Positions 2,170 through 9,759 of a stretch of DNA of 10,772 bases are shown piece by piece. This stretch comes from a virus (Duplodnaviria > Heunggongvirae > Uroviricota > Caudoviricetes): IMG/VR virus record IMGVR_UViG_2657245124_000005; one strand, 5' to 3'. How positions within the stretch are numbered: the stretch's first letter is position 1; the number at the start of each line of letters is the position of its first letter. The position numbers were made by a program, and so were the translations under genes. The notes below the pieces were generated by a model that was not told the origin of the DNA, made no database searches, and was given only the letters and a program-made list of their open reading frames with translations.

Positions 2170-2197
2170 AGATAAAATAAACCCGCCGAAGCGGGTT
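2170..2197 (-). terminator. Rho-independent terminator candidate downstream of hok-like gene
   Basis: Minus-strand stem ACCCGC-loop-GCGGGT (2181..2196) followed by UAUUUUAUCU on the minus strand. Confidence 0.5.
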
Positions 2198-2236
2198 AAG
2201 TGCGGGTGCATTGAGGATGCCTGACACATCAGAGGT

Positions 2237-2258
2237 GGCGAGGGATTTCTCCCTCGCC
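2237..2258 (-). other. perfect 9-bp inverted repeat hairpin immediately 3' of hok-like stop
   Basis: GGCGAGGGA tttc TCCCTCGCC at 2237..2258, 8 nt after the stop at 2266; no U-tract, so more likely an mRNA 3' structural element than a terminator. Confidence 0.4.
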
Positions 2259-2265
2259 TGGTCTC

Positions 2266-2421
2266 TTACTCCTCAGGTTCGTAAGCTGTGAAGACAGCGA
2301 CCTCCGTCTGGCCGGTTCGGATTCGTACCTCGCAGAGGTCTTTCCTCGTTACCAGTGCCGTCACTATGACGGTTAAACAGATGACGATCAGGGCGATTAA
2401 CATCGCCTTTTGCTGCTTCAT
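2266..2421 (-). CDS. hokD: Hok-family type I toxin (HokD/RelF-like small membrane protein)
   Basis: ATG at 2421..2419 with AAGGAG 9 nt upstream; 51 aa MKQQKAMLIALIVICLTVIVTALVTRKDLCEVRIRTGQTEVAVFTAYEPEE: single N-terminal transmembrane helix plus conserved C-terminal Cys pattern of Hok/Gef proteins. The track ORF adds 19 in-frame upstream codons from an ATG at 2478. Confidence 0.8.
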   Translation of the reverse strand: MKQQKAMLIALIVICLTVIVTALVTRKDLCEVRIRTGQTEVAVFTAYEPEE

Positions 2422-2779
2422 AGCCTGCTTCTCCTTGCCTTTCGGCACGTAAGAGGCTAACCTACATGTGTCTAGCATGAAATTGGCCTCAGATTAATGT
2501 TAAGCGTCTTGCAGGACGCGTAATGTTAACTGGGGCTTTTCTCTATCTGCCTTTGGTGTTCATGCCTGAGGCAGATAGCCTCAAGCACCCGCAGCAATTC
2601 TACTTAACTCACGTCACCTCGCCAATATAAAATCAATCAGAAAGGCGATCCGTAAGAACAACAGCAAGACAATAAATTGCCATTACAGCCGCAATAGCTA
2701 GCGCACATTTGAGAACCAGCACGACAACCTCCTGTATTGGACGTACACCAGTCCTGATAAATATGAGGCTGTCTCATCA

Positions 2780-2807: not shown

Positions 2808-3036
2808 TTCTGTGATTTTGTTCTGTAGAAATGGAACACAACAACCAGTCTCCACCAGCACTTCTTTAAATACGCCAAGTCCGACGCAAGCTAACCTTCT
2901 AGTCCGCTTTGAGCGAACTGTGGAAGCTCGCAAATGTTGTTACATCTGATGAAGGCATTACTCAAAGGAGGGGATAGTAGTCAACGTGGAGCAGGCCATG
3001 TTAGTATTTTTATACAATTCGACTAAGGGAAAAACA

Positions 3037-3906
3037 ATGAGGCTTTACATAATAGGAAATGGATTTGACATGCGTCATGGCTTACCAACAGGATACAAGC
3101 ACTTTAAGTCGTATGTAGAAAAAAATGACCAAGATCTATATGACGCGATAGAAGAATACATTCCTGCTGGGGACGAGTGGAATGAGTTAGAAAATGCTTT
3201 AGGTGAAATTGATTATGAGCTTATCCTTCAAAACAGTGAGATATTTTTGGCTTCATACAATACCGATGATTGGAGCGATGCTTATCATCACGATTACCAA
3301 TATGAAGTAAATAAAATCACACAAATGCTGTCAGCTCGTTTGAAGGAGCAATTCGCTGATTGGGTTAAAGGGATTAACATAGCCGATGCTTACAATCCTA
3401 AGCAATACATCCCGCCCATACCAAGAGAAAGCATCTATTTTTCATTTAATTATACAAATACCTTGCAGCAGATCTATGCCGTTCCAGACGAGCAAATCAT
3501 ACATATTCACGGCAATTGTAGTTACGATGACGATCTCATACTTGGTCATAGTTTTAGGGTGGAAAAGTCACTAAATCCATATATAGGACCGGATCAAGAT
3601 ACAAGAATAGCAGAGGCATACGACAGAATAAACGAATACTTCGGTAATACATTCAAGCCCAGCGAAGACATAATTAAAGAAGAAAACGTTTTTTTCTCAT
3701 CGCTTAAAAATGTGGACGAGGTCATCGTTTTAGGCCACTCGCTCGCCGAAGTTGACGGTGAATACTTTACTGAAATAAATAAAAGCATCCAAGAAAATGC
3801 TCGATGGATAGTTGCTTTATATAGAGGTGAGAAAAAATCAGGCAGTTTAGAAGATTATGGTATCAGAGGCTCAAATATTTCTTACGTACAGTATGAAGAT
3901 ATCTGA
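3037..3906 (+). CDS. AbiH-family abortive-infection protein homolog
   Basis: N-terminus MRLYIIGNGFDMRHGLPTGYKHFKSY matches the hallmark IIGNGFD..HGL..Y motif of the AbiH family (Pfam PF14253, from memory). ATG at 3037 is preceded by AAGGGA; in-frame alternative starts at GTG 2986 (preceded by AAGGAGGGG) and ATG 2998. Codon composition is AT-rich, unlike the flanking prophage genes. Confidence 0.75.
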   Translation: MRLYIIGNGFDMRHGLPTGYKHFKSYVEKNDQDLYDAIEEYIPAGDEWNELENALGEIDYELILQNSEIFLASYNTDDWSDAYHHDYQYEVNKITQMLSARLKEQFADWVKGINIADAYNPKQYIPPIPRESIYFSFNYTNTLQQIYAVPDEQIIHIHGNCSYDDDLILGHSFRVEKSLNPYIGPDQDTRIAEAYDRINEYFGNTFKPSEDIIKEENVFFSSLKNVDEVIVLGHSLAEVDGEYFTEINKSIQENARWIVALYRGEKKSGSLEDYGIRGSNISYVQYEDI

Positions 3907-3995
3907 ATGAGACTTCATATTATAACTATAATTATGTAAAAAAGGCTGGTATTTTATACCTTGAGGAAAATAGATAAGAGGAATGAGGTTTGGTT

Positions 3996-5387
3996 ATGAT
4001 GAATTATACTGATGAGTCAACTTTTCTTGAAAAGTACAAACCGTTTAGGAAGTTTTGGACAATTTTATCACCTCATTATGTATCTTTAATGCATGCACTT
4101 GCCAAAATGATAAGGGGAGGGAATCCAATTCAAGAACTACCTTCCAATGATGAGGATTTTCTTGCAGAGTATGAAACCTGTCTCAAAAATTGGAAAGACT
4201 CACAAAAAATCATATCTTTTGAGATTATTATTCGGCTGAGAGATATAAAAAGATTGGAAACTGAAAAAAAAGAGCACCATCGAAACAAGGATAAAGAAAA
4301 TAAAGAAAAGTGTATTGATGAAATAAGTTTAAAAAAATTTGAAATTCTTATTCTTCGCCGTTGTATTGACTCAATAATTTGGAGCATTCTTGATGAAGAA
4401 CACTCTAGTTTGCGGCGTTTACCTATTAATGCAAGCAATGACAATCTATCAGAAGATAACATAATTGATTCTATGGTCGCAGCCGATCTTATCAACCAGG
4501 ACAAACACTCCGTAGCGATTGTCTCTGACATGAGCACATTTGTTCATGTGGGAGATTTAGTCACCTTTAATCTACTGGATGGCTTCCAGCTCGTGGAAGT
4601 TAAAACAGGTGAAAAGAATAATGAGCTTTATGAAGCTGCTGAATTTTCTGTTATCTCAGAATGTCCGCACTTTGAAGAAAACTTCATTAACAATATGCCT
4701 GATAATGATGTTAAGCAATTTAATCGCATAAAAAGGCAAATCATTCGTGGCATGAATGTTCTGGAGGCGATTAATACTGGCGAGGGCTTTGACAACTTTC
4801 ATCAGTCTAAAGTTAAAATCAATGAGATAGATCATCCGTCTGAATTTTATACCCACCGCTTAGTTAAAATGTGGGAGATTATTCGCGGAGGAAAAAATTG
4901 GGCAATTGATACTATTGATGAATGTTTGTTCTTAGGTATGTACCGTGATTCTGAAATGGGCTTTGTTGCCTTCAATGGATGGATGGATAGTCTCGGTATA
5001 AAAAGCCCTGTTGTGAATATAAATGATTCATTCTTTGACCCTTTGTCTCGACCATTTATGAGTTTGCATCTGCCAACTGAAATGCTCTCCGATCTCATGT
5101 CGGGACAAATAATCATCGTCATGTGTTTTGACAATGAACTTTTTTTTCACCGTGCTAACAAAACGTACCCGGGTTTATATCTCCTTAGCGATGCAGCAAG
5201 AACAAAGCAGCCATTAGAAAATATTCTTCGTGTTGGTTCACAAGGGATAGCTTCTTACGTAGATGGGAATACCAGCTTTTTAGGTAATGGTATTGAATCC
5301 CGTATCCTTTTCGATCAGCAACGACCCGACAACATTATTGAGTGGAGCTATGCTAGAAGCGATCTCAAAAAGCAACATGAAGCATAA
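3996..5387 (+). CDS. unknown 463-aa protein co-oriented with AbiH-like gene; putative PD-(D/E)xK-like nuclease motif
   Basis: ATG at 3996 with GAGG 7 nt upstream (track start 3990 is TTG). Long uninterrupted AT-rich ORF, 89 bp after the AbiH-like stop. Contains HVGD(189)LV...LVE(203)VK(205) by track numbering (nt 4554..4604), the spacing of a PD-(D/E)xK core, and a Lys/Glu-rich stretch (RDIKRLETEKKEHHRNKDKENKEK). No Walker A motif seen. Confidence 0.7.
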   Translation: MMNYTDESTFLEKYKPFRKFWTILSPHYVSLMHALAKMIRGGNPIQELPSNDEDFLAEYETCLKNWKDSQKIISFEIIIRLRDIKRLETEKKEHHRNKDKENKEKCIDEISLKKFEILILRRCIDSIIWSILDEEHSSLRRLPINASNDNLSEDNIIDSMVAADLINQDKHSVAIVSDMSTFVHVGDLVTFNLLDGFQLVEVKTGEKNNELYEAAEFSVISECPHFEENFINNMPDNDVKQFNRIKRQIIRGMNVLEAINTGEGFDNFHQSKVKINEIDHPSEFYTHRLVKMWEIIRGGKNWAIDTIDECLFLGMYRDSEMGFVAFNGWMDSLGIKSPVVNINDSFFDPLSRPFMSLHLPTEMLSDLMSGQIIIVMCFDNELFFHRANKTYPGLYLLSDAARTKQPLENILRVGSQGIASYVDGNTSFLGNGIESRILFDQQRPDNIIEWSYARSDLKKQHEA

Positions 5388-7254: not shown

Positions 7255-7680
7255 TCAATGCACAGCCACAATATTTCCTGCAGGGCCACCACGATTCATC
7301 TGGTTGAAACCAGCGATCGCCACTGCGACAAAATCATCAGCGTCTCTCACCAGTCGTTCCCGCGTCTCCACTAGTTCCCGAAAATAGGCTGAGCTATGAC
7401 TGCGCATTCGGGCCACCAGCAGAGGTGGCATTGCTTTTTCGATAGCTGGTAACAACGCCTGAATTTTTTTAACCGCATCAGGGGTGTCTTTCTCCACCCA
7501 GCGGAAAATTTTCTGAGTATTGCGAGCCAGGGCTTCCGGATGGCTGTCGTCATACAGTTCCGGGAACGTCATTCCCAGCTCGAAATACGCTTTGGTAATT
7601 TTCGCAGCCGGTACTTTTTCGCCGTCCGGATGCGCCCAGGCATTCATCGCCATGCGGATGTGTTCATGCTTGATTTTCAT
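7255..7680 (-). CDS. ydaT: YdaT-family protein (CII-like regulator of Rac/CP-933P-type immunity regions)
   Basis: ATG at 7680..7678 overlaps the upstream gene's stop (ATGA). 141 aa starting MKIKHEHI, which I recall as the YdaT N-terminus; it sits directly after a Cro-like gene, as in ydaS-ydaT. Confidence 0.6.
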   Translation of the reverse strand: MKIKHEHIRMAMNAWAHPDGEKVPAAKITKAYFELGMTFPELYDDSHPEALARNTQKIFRWVEKDTPDAVKKIQALLPAIEKAMPPLLVARMRSHSSAYFRELVETRERLVRDADDFVAVAIAGFNQMNRGGPAGNIVAVH

Positions 7681-7931
7681 GAATCAACTCCCATCAGCTT
7701 TTTCGTAGTAGTTTTATTCCTGCCAATAGTTAAAATTGCATCGGCAGAAAATAATCCGTTTGATGCAAGAGCGATTTTTTCAGCGTAATTTGTTTCGCCG
7801 GTATATTCTGTGCGAGGCAATTTTCCGTTATCCATCCATTTATAGATTGCTCTTTGGCTGACACCACAAACGTCGGCCACAACAGCAACGCGAACAGTTT
7901 TGATTACATCTTCAAGTGTTTTCTGGTTCAT
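7677..7931 (-). CDS. ydaS: Cro/YdaS-like HTH regulator
   Basis: ATG at 7931..7929 with GAGGGTGA upstream; 84 aa MNQKTLEDVIKTVRVAVVADVCGVSQRAIYKWMDNGKLP has a helix-turn-helix signature. Divergent from the repressor gene at 8011. The track's 108-aa version starts within the operator region and is unlikely. Confidence 0.65.
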   Translation of the reverse strand: MNQKTLEDVIKTVRVAVVADVCGVSQRAIYKWMDNGKLPRTEYTGETNYAEKIALASNGLFSADAILTIGRNKTTTKKLMGVDS

Positions 7932-8010
7932 ATCACCCTCACAATGTGAACTTTGAGTACATGCTATAACAGAACTGACAGTACATTCAAGAGCGAATAT
8001 CATTGAACTT
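7932..8010. promoter_or_regulatory. divergent promoter/operator region between Cro-like and repressor genes
   Basis: 79-bp gap between divergent starts; direct repeats of AGTACAT at 7956..7962 and 7980..7986, TGAACTT at 7947..7953 and 8004..8010, and TATAAC/GAATAT -10-like hexamers. Confidence 0.5.
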
Positions 8011-8430
8011 ATGGTTCATGAAGATAAAGCGCGTAAAGAGTTCGCCAGTAGGCTTGCGCTAGCCTGTGAAAACGCTGGTTATGAACAACATGGAAGGCAG
8101 GCAGAAATTGCCCGTCGAATGAAATTAACACCAAAAGCGGTTAGCAAATGGTTTAATGGCGAAACAATTCCTCGCCGGGAGAAATTAAGGGAATTAGCAA
8201 CACTAATAGGAACAACACCAACCTATCTTTTGGGAGAGGATACAGAAGAAAGTGGACAGGTACGTTTCTATCAGGAGTTAAATCCAAGACAAAAAATCAT
8301 CATTGACCTTCTGGACGAGCTCCCTGACAGTGAGACAGATGAACTTTTAAAAACTCTTGAAGAGAAAAAACAGAAGTACAATGCAATTTACGAAGAGTTA
8401 GCACGAAAGAAAAAACAAAAAGCCTCTTAA
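8011..8430 (+). CDS. DicA/RacR-type prophage repressor (XRE-family HTH, C-terminal acidic/coiled region)
   Basis: 139 aa; HTH_3-like segment QAEIARRMKLTPKAVSKWFNGETIPRREKLRELATLIGTTPTYLL. Same architecture as DicA but the sequence is not the K-12 DicA as I recall it. Confidence 0.75.
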   Translation: MVHEDKARKEFASRLALACENAGYEQHGRQAEIARRMKLTPKAVSKWFNGETIPRREKLRELATLIGTTPTYLLGEDTEESGQVRFYQELNPRQKIIIDLLDELPDSETDELLKTLEEKKQKYNAIYEELARKKKQKAS

Positions 8431-9701: not shown

Positions 9702-9759
9702 TTTCTGGTGACGTTTGGCGGTATCAGTTTTACTCCGTGACTGCTCTGCCGCCGTTTTT
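9702..9759 (+). ncRNA. dicF: DicF small regulatory RNA
   Basis: TTTCTGGTGACGTTTGGCGGTATCAGTTTTACTCCGTGACTGCTCTGCCGCCGTTTTT matches the DicF sequence as I remember it. It ends in a GGCGG/CCGCC stem (9717..9721 with 9749..9753) plus T5 (9755..9759) and lies just upstream of dicB, as in Qin. Confidence 0.85.

Follow-up and report, generated by a model that had tools for sequence, protein, structure and literature searches.

hokW-mokW-sokW, carried by the Stx2 prophage Sp5 (VT2-Sakai), has been shown to be a working type I toxin-antitoxin system and to depend on RNase III and Hfq (Takada et al. 2021; PMC8621323). After mitomycin C treatment Sok is lost and Hok is gained, and deletion of the system lowers phage release to about half. 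The -10 element and the start site of sokW were shown in the same study, in which promoter mutations abolished the antitoxin activity and the complementarity between sokW and the hokW leader was given as 71 nt. HokW shares 44% identity with Hok of plasmid R1 (PMC8621323), whose hok/mok/sok (parB) system is proven to act by post-segregational killing. In R1, function is lost when substitutions weaken the final stem-loop of the truncated mRNA (PMC9841398). The chromosomal hokD (relF) of K-12, located in the cryptic prophage Qin, has been described as inactivated by rearrangement (PMC12214031).

The window analysed here, which is the whole stretch of 10,772 nucleotides of the IMG/VR record IMGVR_UViG_2657245124_000005, very probably contains a hok/mok/sok type I toxin-antitoxin cassette that is complete, belongs to the hokD/hokW class and lies in the early-right region of a Qin-like lambdoid prophage, with the relB-relE-hokD arrangement of K-12 as a derivative of this cassette. 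The cassette belongs to an already known and common type and its carrier is a lambda-like E. coli prophage; of 5426 complete E. coli genomes, 4167 carry the hok/sok leader. All parts appear to be present and intact (Table 1), namely toxin gene, mok frame and mok Shine-Dalgarno (SD) sequence, two promoters, Sok hairpin, tac, ucb, fbi, 3' stem-loop and terminator, and none of the about 12 elements is damaged in the window copy. An earlier note on this DNA had placed here a Hok ORF, an in-frame upstream ATG at 2478 giving a 70-aa ORF, an inverted repeat, a hairpin after the stop codon and a terminator, and all of them were recovered exactly where it had put them.

Table 1. Elements of the hok/mok/sok cassette in the window (putative positions for the transcript ends and the start site of Sok)
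Element	Position	Strand	Description
Whole cassette	~2625 to 2170	minus (sok on plus)	
hok (mok-hok) promoter	2597..2625	-	-35 TTGGCG 2625-2620, 17-nt spacer, -10 TAGAAT 2602-2597
Full-length hok mRNA	2172..2590	-	~417 nt; putative 5' end G2590, putative 3' end in the T run past the terminator
tac (translational activator)	2579..2590	-	GGGUGCUUGAGG; mRNA 5' end; conserved in 36 loci
Inner stem-loop of the 5' (tac) hairpin	2543..2578	-	arms 2578-2569 and 2552-2543; helix 2, 92.8% paired
ucb (anti-SD box)	2532..2541	-	GAAAAGCCCC; alternative pairings in predicted folds: mok SD region (full-length), tac (truncated)
Sok antisense RNA (predicted)	~2470..2542	+	~72 nt; 5' single-stranded tail, hairpin 2485-2535, then CUUUUC; putative ends
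mok Shine-Dalgarno	2487..2490	-	GAGG; 8 nt upstream of ATG 2478; nearly invariant in alignment A2; paired in the full-length fold
mok reading frame	2266..2478	-	70 codons, in frame with hok: 19 leader codons + Hok
sok promoter	2435..2463	+	putative, read from sequence; -35 TTGCCT 2435-2440, 17-nt spacer, -10 TAACCT 2458-2463
hok Shine-Dalgarno	2431..2436	-	AAGGAG; read from sequence; conserved in alignment A2; kept in K-12
hok toxin gene	2266..2421	-	51 aa + stop; MKQQKAMLIALIVICLTVIVTALVTRKDLCEVRIRTGQTEVAVFTAYEPEE; identical to K-12 HokD
UACG motif at Hok Tyr47	2280..2283	-	Tyr-to-Cys A-to-I (TadA) editing site of hokC/D/E mRNAs in the literature
Conserved 3' stem-loop after the stop	2237..2258	-	9-bp perfect hairpin GGCGAGGGA/TCCCTCGCC; helix 19, 94.9% paired
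fbi (fold-back inhibition)	2204..2216	-	CCUCAAUGCACCC; pairs with tac; 1-nt bulge at 2210
Intrinsic terminator of hok mRNA	2170..2197	-	stem AACCCGC/GCGGGTT at 2197-2180, then UUUAUUUU; T run 2179-2170; common to K-12 hokD

The product of the toxin gene is a small hydrophobic protein of the Hok/Gef type with about 50 residues, which matches Pfam HOK_GEF with E = 3e-23 (81.6 bits; cut-off 22) and K-12 HokD with 100% identity in tblastn (7e-31). The RefSeq annotation in identical genomes is hokD, and it is these records that carry the name; the NCBIfam Hok models match this protein below their cut-offs, and PADLOC gave no model match for Hok or Mok. ATG 2478 is the start of mok and not an alternative start of Hok. 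It is located 57 nt before the hok ATG in the window and in most of the relatives; R1 and some relatives have it at 58 nt, in the other frame. An in-frame ATG is not odd here: a rule that mok is always out of frame does not hold, as most of the hokD-, hokC- and Photorhabdus-type loci have it in frame at 57 nt, R1 proper having 58 nt. In Stx2 phages, the equivalent 70-codon ORF, which shares the stop codon of Hok, carries the annotation MokW or “host cell-killing modulation protein”.

For the region upstream of the toxin gene, the Rfam hok/sok leader covariance model RF01794 aligned to 2590..2416 (175 nt) in the hok-sense direction over all its positions (1-157 of 157), with a score of 119.9 bits and E = 1.6e-27 (gathering score 59), so that a conserved structured 5' leader is found here. 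The hok promoter has 9 of 12 consensus matches in a consensus scan, shares its -10 hexamer with hokW of Sp5 and ends 6 nt upstream of the position aligned to model position 1, the putative start site. About 500 bp in front of the gene had earlier been described as without a convincing ORF. About 170 nt of this stretch are the hok leader and about 35 nt are the hok promoter, while ~2626-2985 is the divergent spacer to abiH. An ORF at 2637-2933 on the minus strand (98 aa, TTG start) was taken as spurious; it is unannotated in every identical RefSeq genome.

The 417-nt transcript folds with -178.2 kcal/mol, compared with -123.6 +/- 5.8 kcal/mol for dinucleotide shuffles (z = -9.41). In the full-length minimum-energy fold, nucleotides 1-12 (2590-2579) are paired to 2216-2204 and the mok SD is sequestered. 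In a 3'-truncated RNA, tac is predicted to pair with AAGCCCC (2538-2532) instead, by which the leader would refold and the mok ribosome-binding site would be exposed. The 9-bp inverted repeat of the earlier note is indeed perfect (CTATCTGCC, 2543-2551; GGCAGATAG, 2570-2578) and forms the inner stem of the 5' tac hairpin; likewise, the perfect hairpin it saw after the stop is the conserved 3' stem-loop, and its terminator is the one that would end the full-length hok mRNA. The fbi element, which pairs with the mRNA 5' end, had been overlooked in that reading; it lies 45-56 nt past the stop codon in more than 30 loci.

We then summarized the conservation of this structure in 36 aligned loci. The full-length structure is 85.8% paired, compared with 37-43% when the partners are slid by 1-3 columns, where the structure was taken from the window's own fold, which favours it. 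Pairs changed on both sides number 45, compared with 27.3 in shuffles, and none of 500 shuffles reaches 45. The tac/fbi helix, which joins the 5' and 3' ends, is 90.3% paired: its pair 4-426 is U-A in 22 loci and C-G in 12, and pair 12-417 is G-C in 19 loci and A-U in 5. The long-range pairing of the two ends is thus both predicted by folding and seen to covary among relatives. A loss of pairing in the distal half of tac/fbi in Photorhabdus was considered and rejected, since the fixed register is misleading there and those loci are without the 1-nt bulge. Both-side changes also occur at 3 of the 10 pairs of helix 2, and helix 19 has compensatory changes, for example AGCGGGGGAG/CUCCCGCC in hokW. 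The tac/ucb stem is 99.6% paired and yet invariant, so it gains no support from covariation, and the ucb/SD helix is 64-89% paired; the mechanism of ucb is assigned by homology to R1 (PMC9841398). Altogether, the suggestion that the flanking hairpins are regulatory structures of a hok mRNA was borne out by the full RF01794 match, the z of -9.4 and the helices kept with compensatory changes in the 36 loci.

A Sok-like antisense RNA on the plus strand had been suspected within 2430..2600, and a candidate sok gene with its own promoter and terminator hairpin can be read at ~2435-2542, at the level of the sequence. The putative promoter is weak compared with consensus (-35, 4 of 6; -10, 3 of 6) and did not reach the threshold used in the consensus scan; between the hok ATG and position 2468 the sequence is the same as in hokW-sokW. 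The predicted Sok folds with -29.1 kcal/mol (z = -5.59) into a 5' tail, a hairpin and a U tail, in which the 5' tail is complementary to the mok start and SD.

In an alignment to the known loci, a check proposed in the earlier note, the cassette shares 94.0% nucleotide identity with hokW-sokW over 417 nt (2610-2194). Both have a 51-aa toxin and an in-frame 70-codon mok sharing its stop with Hok, which places them in the same subfamily; they do not differ in tac, ucb, the two SD sequences (mok and hok) or the sok promoter stretch, and the Sok of hokW-sokW is about 71 nt long. The differences are four C-terminal residues between HokW and the window's Hok (VFVDYESEK vs VFTAYEPEE), about 7 of the 22 positions that make up the Sok 5' tail and mok initiation region, and the terminator, because the homology stops just past fbi. 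It is mainly in the Sok 5' tail that the window copy diverges from hokW and other resident copies. Besides, hokW-sokW lies beside ea22/ant-type genes in Sp5, whereas the window copy lies between replication genes and DUF968/Q.

R1 has the same order of elements, namely promoter, tac, 5' hairpin, ucb, Sok-complementary hairpin, mok SD/ATG, hok SD/ATG, 3' stem-loop, fbi and terminator, and the two alternative folds predicted here are those described for R1 (PMC9841398). In contrast to the window, R1 has mok out of frame at 58 nt, a longer 5' hairpin and a shorter Sok hairpin, and it is plasmid-borne with a proven function, whereas the window copy sits in a prophage and is known from sequence. 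The hokC/mokC/sokC (gef) loci (L022-L025) also have mok in frame at 57 nt, with 69 codons, the same tac and a very similar fbi. Their Hok, however, is 80-82% identical, their Sok hairpin is without the ~20-nt extension of the window, and they occupy a chromosomal site, not a prophage, which is disrupted downstream in K-12-like strains (L019). In one aligned locus (L006), Hok is identical to the 52-aa R1 Hok sequence. This locus was rejected as R1 itself, because its Sok region differs from the R1 sequence and its mok is in frame, and it was used as an R1-type relative only.

The lack of a relBE context noted earlier was upheld, as tblastn of K-12 RelE and RelB against the window gave nothing at E <= 5; in a permissive run, the best RelE match (E = 1.1) was elsewhere in the window. 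blastn of the K-12 relBE DNA matched only 14 nt just upstream of the hok ATG (2422-2435). A complete leader stands in place of relB and relE. K-12 hokD has the identical Hok, near-identical DNA from 2435 to 2174 (14 nt before the ATG through fbi and the terminator), to which the identity with K-12 is confined, and the same type of prophage neighbourhood, in which a DUF968 gene flanks one side and dicA/dicF/dicB lie at a greater distance. Unlike the window copy, it is without the hok promoter, tac, ucb, the mok start, the Sok target and sok, and has relE and relB there instead. The breakpoint at 2435/2436, inside the sok -35 hexamer, gives the exact truncation point of K-12 hokD; in the K-12 lineage of this locus, relBE would have replaced everything upstream of 2435. 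The relE-hokD junction was found in 1173 genomes (the leader in 4167). A hok without relBE is therefore not unusual: the intact form is common, and that of K-12 is rearranged.

By homology to plasmid R1 hok/sok and hokW-sokW, the cassette would work as follows. A weak constitutive promoter would give a stable hok mRNA of ~417 nt, which would be translationally inert in its full-length form, with tac locked to fbi and ucb covering the mok ribosome-binding site. Slow 3' exonucleolytic trimming would strip fbi and is predicted to halt at the 2258-2237 stem-loop, whereupon tac would pair with ucb, freeing the mok SD and presenting the Sok target. While it is made, the unstable ~72-nt Sok would pair with the mok initiation region and RNase III would destroy the duplex, so that no Hok is produced. 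When Sok synthesis stops, mok would be translated, the hok SD would be opened and the membrane toxin Hok would be made.

Several other readings of the same sequence were weighed against this one. The inverted repeats might be products of chance or sites acting at the DNA level, such as operators or terminators of neighbouring genes, unrelated to hok; short inverted repeats are indeed common, and the terminator could also serve transcription reading through from upstream. This is already contradicted by their position at the conserved helices of the family, within a full covariance-model match and with covariation and the fold's z, and we give it next to no probability. It is also very unlikely that the 70-aa in-frame ORF is itself the functional toxin, as a long Hok isoform, with the 51-aa form a habit of annotation. 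mok is in frame in the window and in most of the hokD-, hokC- and Photorhabdus-type loci, and some phage records annotate the 70-aa product only. The frame is, however, not conserved, with mok at 58 nt in the other frame in R1 and in L014, L015, L027, L029, L032, L033 and L035, and 42% of the positions in the 19 leader codons are variable when near-identical copies are compared. Moreover, hok keeps its own strong SD (AAGGAG), R1 needs only translation of mok up to the hok SD and not the Mok product (PMC9841398), and expression of 51-aa HokW or HokD by itself is toxic (PMC8621323; bioRxiv 10.1101/2025.08.07.668861).

Two further readings concern the expression of the cassette. It may be intact but silent, a decaying chromosomal hok locus with no natural release of the toxin, as has been proposed for the K-12 copies. 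Among the copies of other genomes, some have visible lesions (L009 is without part of tac, L019 without fbi, and Hok of L051 is frameshifted), whereas the window copy has none. We find silence quite unlikely, given that the 94%-identical hokW-sokW is active with a phenotype on prophage induction (PMC8621323), that a single chromosomal copy of R1 hok is lethal without Sok (PMC9841398), and that the elements are conserved across genera with compensatory changes, which argues for selection. Alternatively, Hok might be made mainly by read-through of the early-right operon from a cro-side promoter, as K-12 hokD is from the relBE promoter, with its own promoter and the control by Sok secondary. hok runs in the same direction as the cro-like, replication, DUF968 and Q genes, as hokW does relative to its neighbours in Sp5, and a collision of read-through with sok transcription would explain the loss of Sok and rise of Hok on RecA-dependent induction (PMC8621323). 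As the main source of Hok it is improbable, since a conserved promoter lies at the right distance from the conserved 5' end, the tac/fbi mechanism requires a defined 5' end, and hok is separated from the replication genes by abiH and a 465-aa gene in opposite orientation. The 465-aa protein encoded beside AbiH gave a confident structure model and no informative structural match. Read-through is compatible with the main explanation and does not exclude it.

As for the role of the complete cassette, which is the least certain part, it is possible, by analogy to hokW-sokW, that it helps lysis and phage release on prophage induction, or that it serves prophage retention or exclusion of other phages; intactness of the sequence is no guarantee of a plasmid-type phenotype. 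Since mok and hok share a reading frame, translation initiated at 2478 would give an N-extended Hok of 70 aa, and it is conceivable, though fairly unlikely, that this is a functionally distinct second product. As a separate matter, the cassette has the same orientation as the early operon of the prophage and could thus be switched on at induction by read-through into the sok promoter; that it acts in this way as a timed lysis helper and not as an addiction module is a similarly long shot.

The importance of the cassette reaches little beyond annotation, as it is a textbook system of which a 94%-identical copy has already been characterised experimentally. At such loci RefSeq annotates the hokD CDS only, leaving mok, sok and the leader unannotated across thousands of genomes. 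A literature search for the name “sokD” gave only irrelevant results. Besides, the Rfam model named “sok” runs in the hok-sense direction, and its matches should not be read as Sok coordinates.

The editing motif at Tyr47 is located in a TACGAA that is invariant in 36 of the 36 aligned loci. In the literature, 6% of hokD mRNA is edited (PMC12214031; bioRxiv 10.1101/2025.08.07.668861), and the HokD protein, identical to the window's Hok, served as a toxic control (bioRxiv 10.1101/2025.08.07.668861).

The minus-strand cassette is intact and typical of a family that has been studied in depth; it is already known, and it has a near-identical and experimentally tested relative (hokW-sokW). The earlier note had described a Hok-family toxin without a relBE context, and this observation is confirmed. 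The Hok ORF encodes the 51-aa peptide MKQQKAMLIALIVICLTVIVTALVTRKDLCEVRIRTGQTEVAVFTAYEPEE, which matches Pfam HOK_GEF (3e-23) and is the same as K-12 HokD. With K-12 RelE and RelB as tblastn queries, no relE or relB remnant was found in the window at E <= 5, and the sole stretch common to K-12 relBE DNA and the window is the 14 nt immediately 5' of the hok ATG. What the cassette does for this prophage is the least certain part of the picture, and the transcripts of this copy are predicted ones.

Features of the hok/mok/sok cassette and of the surrounding prophage
Feature	Position	Strand	Detail
hok promoter (predicted)	2625-2597	-	TTGGCG-17-TAGAAT
mRNA start (inferred)	2590	-	G2590
tac	2590-2579	-	GGGUGCUUGAGG
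5' hairpin	2578-2543	-	inner stem 2543-2551/2570-2578
ucb	2541-2532	-	GAAAAGCCCC
Long hairpin	2531-2491	-	complement of Sok terminator stem
mok SD	2490-2487	-	GAGG
mok ATG	2478	-	70 codons
sok promoter (predicted)	2435-2440, 2458-2463	+	TTGCCT, 17 nt, TAACCT
hok SD	2436-2431	-	AAGGAG
hok ATG	2421	-	ORF 2421..2266, stop 2268-2266
3' stem-loop	2258-2237	-	perfect 9-bp stem
fbi	2216-2204	-	CCUCAAUGCACCC
Terminator	2197-2170	-	stem 2197-2180, T run to 2170
abiH	2986-3906	+	
DicA-like repressor	8011-8430		
DicF small RNA, full-length	9703-9754	+	72.5 bits (gathering score 48)

When the window was aligned with the Qin prophage of MG1655, near identity was found from 2435 to about 2174. K-12 shares with the window the hok SD, CDS, 3' stem-loop, fbi and terminator, while upstream of 2435 it has the 3' end of relE in place of the window leader. 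The breakpoint is inside the sok -35 hexamer, so tac and ucb are missing from K-12, along with the hok promoter, the start of mok, sok and the Sok target. Among the K-12 hok homologues, hokD is reportedly the case of rearrangement described by Pedersen and Gerdes in 1999. The loss of leader and sok agrees with the literature, according to which insertion elements or genomic rearrangement have inactivated every K-12 hok homologue except hokB (PMC12214031). The leader (2436-2625; at least 80% coverage) occurs in 4167 of 5426 complete E. coli genomes (median 2 copies, maximum 10) and carries no annotation in any of them; the K-12 relE-hokD junction is present in 1173 of the 5426. The window has the common form. 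Identical DNA was found in many E. coli chromosomes, where RefSeq solely gives "hokD: type I toxin-antitoxin system toxin HokD", adjoining an AbiH gene. The relE-then-hok order is not restricted to K-12: it also occurs in Kluyvera sp. CHPC 1.2972 (L031), whose Hok is 70% identical to HokD and whose upstream region is the same relE-like sequence, and E. coli ECDA1023 (L010) is listed with it for this arrangement.

The inverted repeat, the hairpin after the stop codon and the terminator reported in the earlier note were all recovered (9 bp, perfect 9 bp, and stem with T run, respectively), and their reading as hok mRNA regulatory structures is upheld by an Rfam match, predicted folds and covariation. 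RF01794 ("sok") covers 2590..2416 on the minus strand with all 157 of 157 model positions (119.9 bits, gathering score 59, E = 1.6e-27). Because the match is on this strand and the last three model positions align with the hok ATG, RF01794 describes the hok-sense leader. It does not supply Sok coordinates, since the sok gene is on the other strand within the leader. The family carries the name "sok antitoxin" yet models the hok mRNA leader rather than Sok RNA, and automatic annotation by it would assign "sok" to the wrong strand at more than twice its proper length. The suspected antisense gene on the plus strand gains a candidate sok promoter and a putative transcript from ~2470 to ~2541, predicted to form a 9-nt 5' tail, a long hairpin and CUUUUC (-29.1 kcal/mol, z = -5.59).

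In its minimum-energy fold, the full-length RNA of 417 nt has nt 1-12 paired with 2216-2204 with a 1-nt bulge, and the mok SD is buried against the ucb region (-178.2 kcal/mol; shuffled controls, -123.6 +/- 5.8; z = -9.41). When the RNA is cut 3' of the 3' stem-loop, the predicted fold switches: tac pairs with ucb AAGCCCC, and the mok initiation region forms its own hairpin with CUAG in the loop. The two predicted folds are the closed full-length and open truncated forms known from plasmid R1 hok mRNA (PMC9841398).

A search through species-representative genomes identified 53 loci with Hok relatives, spanning Escherichia, Shigella, Kluyvera, Pseudocitrobacter, Citrobacter, Pantoea, Photorhabdus and others. 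In more than 30 of the 53, a tac motif precedes hok by 142-169 nt and a tac-complementary sequence is found 45-56 nt past the stop codon. In the 36-sequence alignment A2, the full-length structure taken from the window's own fold reaches 85.8% pairing; sliding the partners by 1-3 columns lowers this to 37-43%. Pairs changed on both sides number 45, where shuffling gives 27.3 +/- 2.8 (none of 500 shuffles is as high as 45), statistics inflated by the relatedness of the sequences; the slid controls and specific compensatory pairs are stronger evidence, such as tac/fbi pairs 4-426 (U-A in 22 loci, C-G in 12) and 12-417 (G-C in 19, A-U in 5). The tac/ucb stem is invariant across A2, so covariation neither backs nor opposes it. 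TACGAA at the Hok Tyr47 codon (window 2280-2283, minus strand) is likewise invariant in 36 of 36 aligned hok loci, R1 type included.

The in-frame upstream ATG pointed out earlier is the mok start, as in relatives and in Stx2-phage annotation, which gives the question of the 51-aa versus the 70-aa product a conventional answer. Stx2-phage records label the 70-aa ORF MokW or "host cell-killing modulation protein", and its stop codon is also that of the 51-aa "host cell-killing protein". The mok-hok distance is 57 nt, with mok in frame, in the window, hokW, hokC-type and Photorhabdus loci, and 58 nt in seven compared loci (L014, L015, L027, L029, L032, L033, L035). In R1 the starts (nt 116-118 and 174-176) are also 58 nt apart, in another frame, and what counts is that mok is translated as far as the hok SD, the Mok product being irrelevant (PMC9841398). 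The interpretation in the earlier note is supported and made more precise.

The closest characterised relative is hokW-mokW-sokW of phage VT2-Sakai (Sp5), with 94% identity over 2610-2194 and no differences between the hok ATG and position 2468, sok promoter included. HokW is toxic and is neutralised by sokW from its own promoter (Takada et al., PMC8621323). In the same study, sokW and the hokW leader are complementary over 71 nt, RNase III and Hfq contribute, mitomycin C leads to RecA-dependent loss of sokW and increase of HokW, and deletion of the locus halves phage release. As it lies in another phage region in Sp5, the cassette (~2610-2194) acts as a portable unit. The homology ends directly after fbi at 2194, and VT2-Sakai (L003) has no obvious counterpart of the AACCCGC/GCGGGTT terminator at its 2890-2980, before the next gene.

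Six near-identical hokD-class copies were compared (window, L007, L008, L011, L016, hokW). Variable columns make up 42% of the 26 nt pairing with the Sok 5' tail (2464-2489, mok initiation region) and 42% of the 3' stem-loop (2235-2265), compensatory changes among them, but 0-8% of tac, ucb, the Sok hairpin body, promoters and CDS. By column counts in this small sample of six, the pattern fits the idea that the recognition region may have diverged, which would limit cross-talk between co-resident copies. Unlike the window copy, which is intact, L009 is without part of tac, the hokC-type L019, in K-12-like position, diverges in its 3' flank ahead of fbi, and the Hok of L051 is frameshifted.

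The window is a Qin-like lambdoid prophage, which is confirmed by DicF, present as in K-12 Qin. It also carries a cro-side HTH gene, a YdaT-family gene, a replication protein and a DUF977 gene, and farther on DUF968, then RusA and Q. The YdaT-family "toxin" gene (7255-8003, minus strand; Pfam YdaT_toxin 1.1e-9) directly follows a small HTH gene in the prophage cro/cII position, suggesting a ydaS/ydaT-like pair. The hok gene has the orientation of the early-right genes. Between it and the replication genes, abiH and a 465-aa gene run the opposite way; phage HannyBb has the same cassette in the same place without either, so the two are an insertion. In a recent survey, hok was enriched in prophages and not near defence systems (bioRxiv 10.1101/2025.08.07.668861). 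The 465-aa ORF (3990-5387, plus strand) begins 84 nt after AbiH and matches nothing in Pfam, PADLOC or NCBIfam, and its 53 homologue clusters are each labelled "hypothetical". Elsewhere, its homologues stand 9-19 nt behind differing first genes, namely Abi_2 (PF07751; L063/L064), DUF3644 (Dickeya, L060) and an unannotated 260-aa gene (L061/L062), all in integrase-rich surroundings, and the protein appears to be a second partner that two-gene Abi-type modules have in common.
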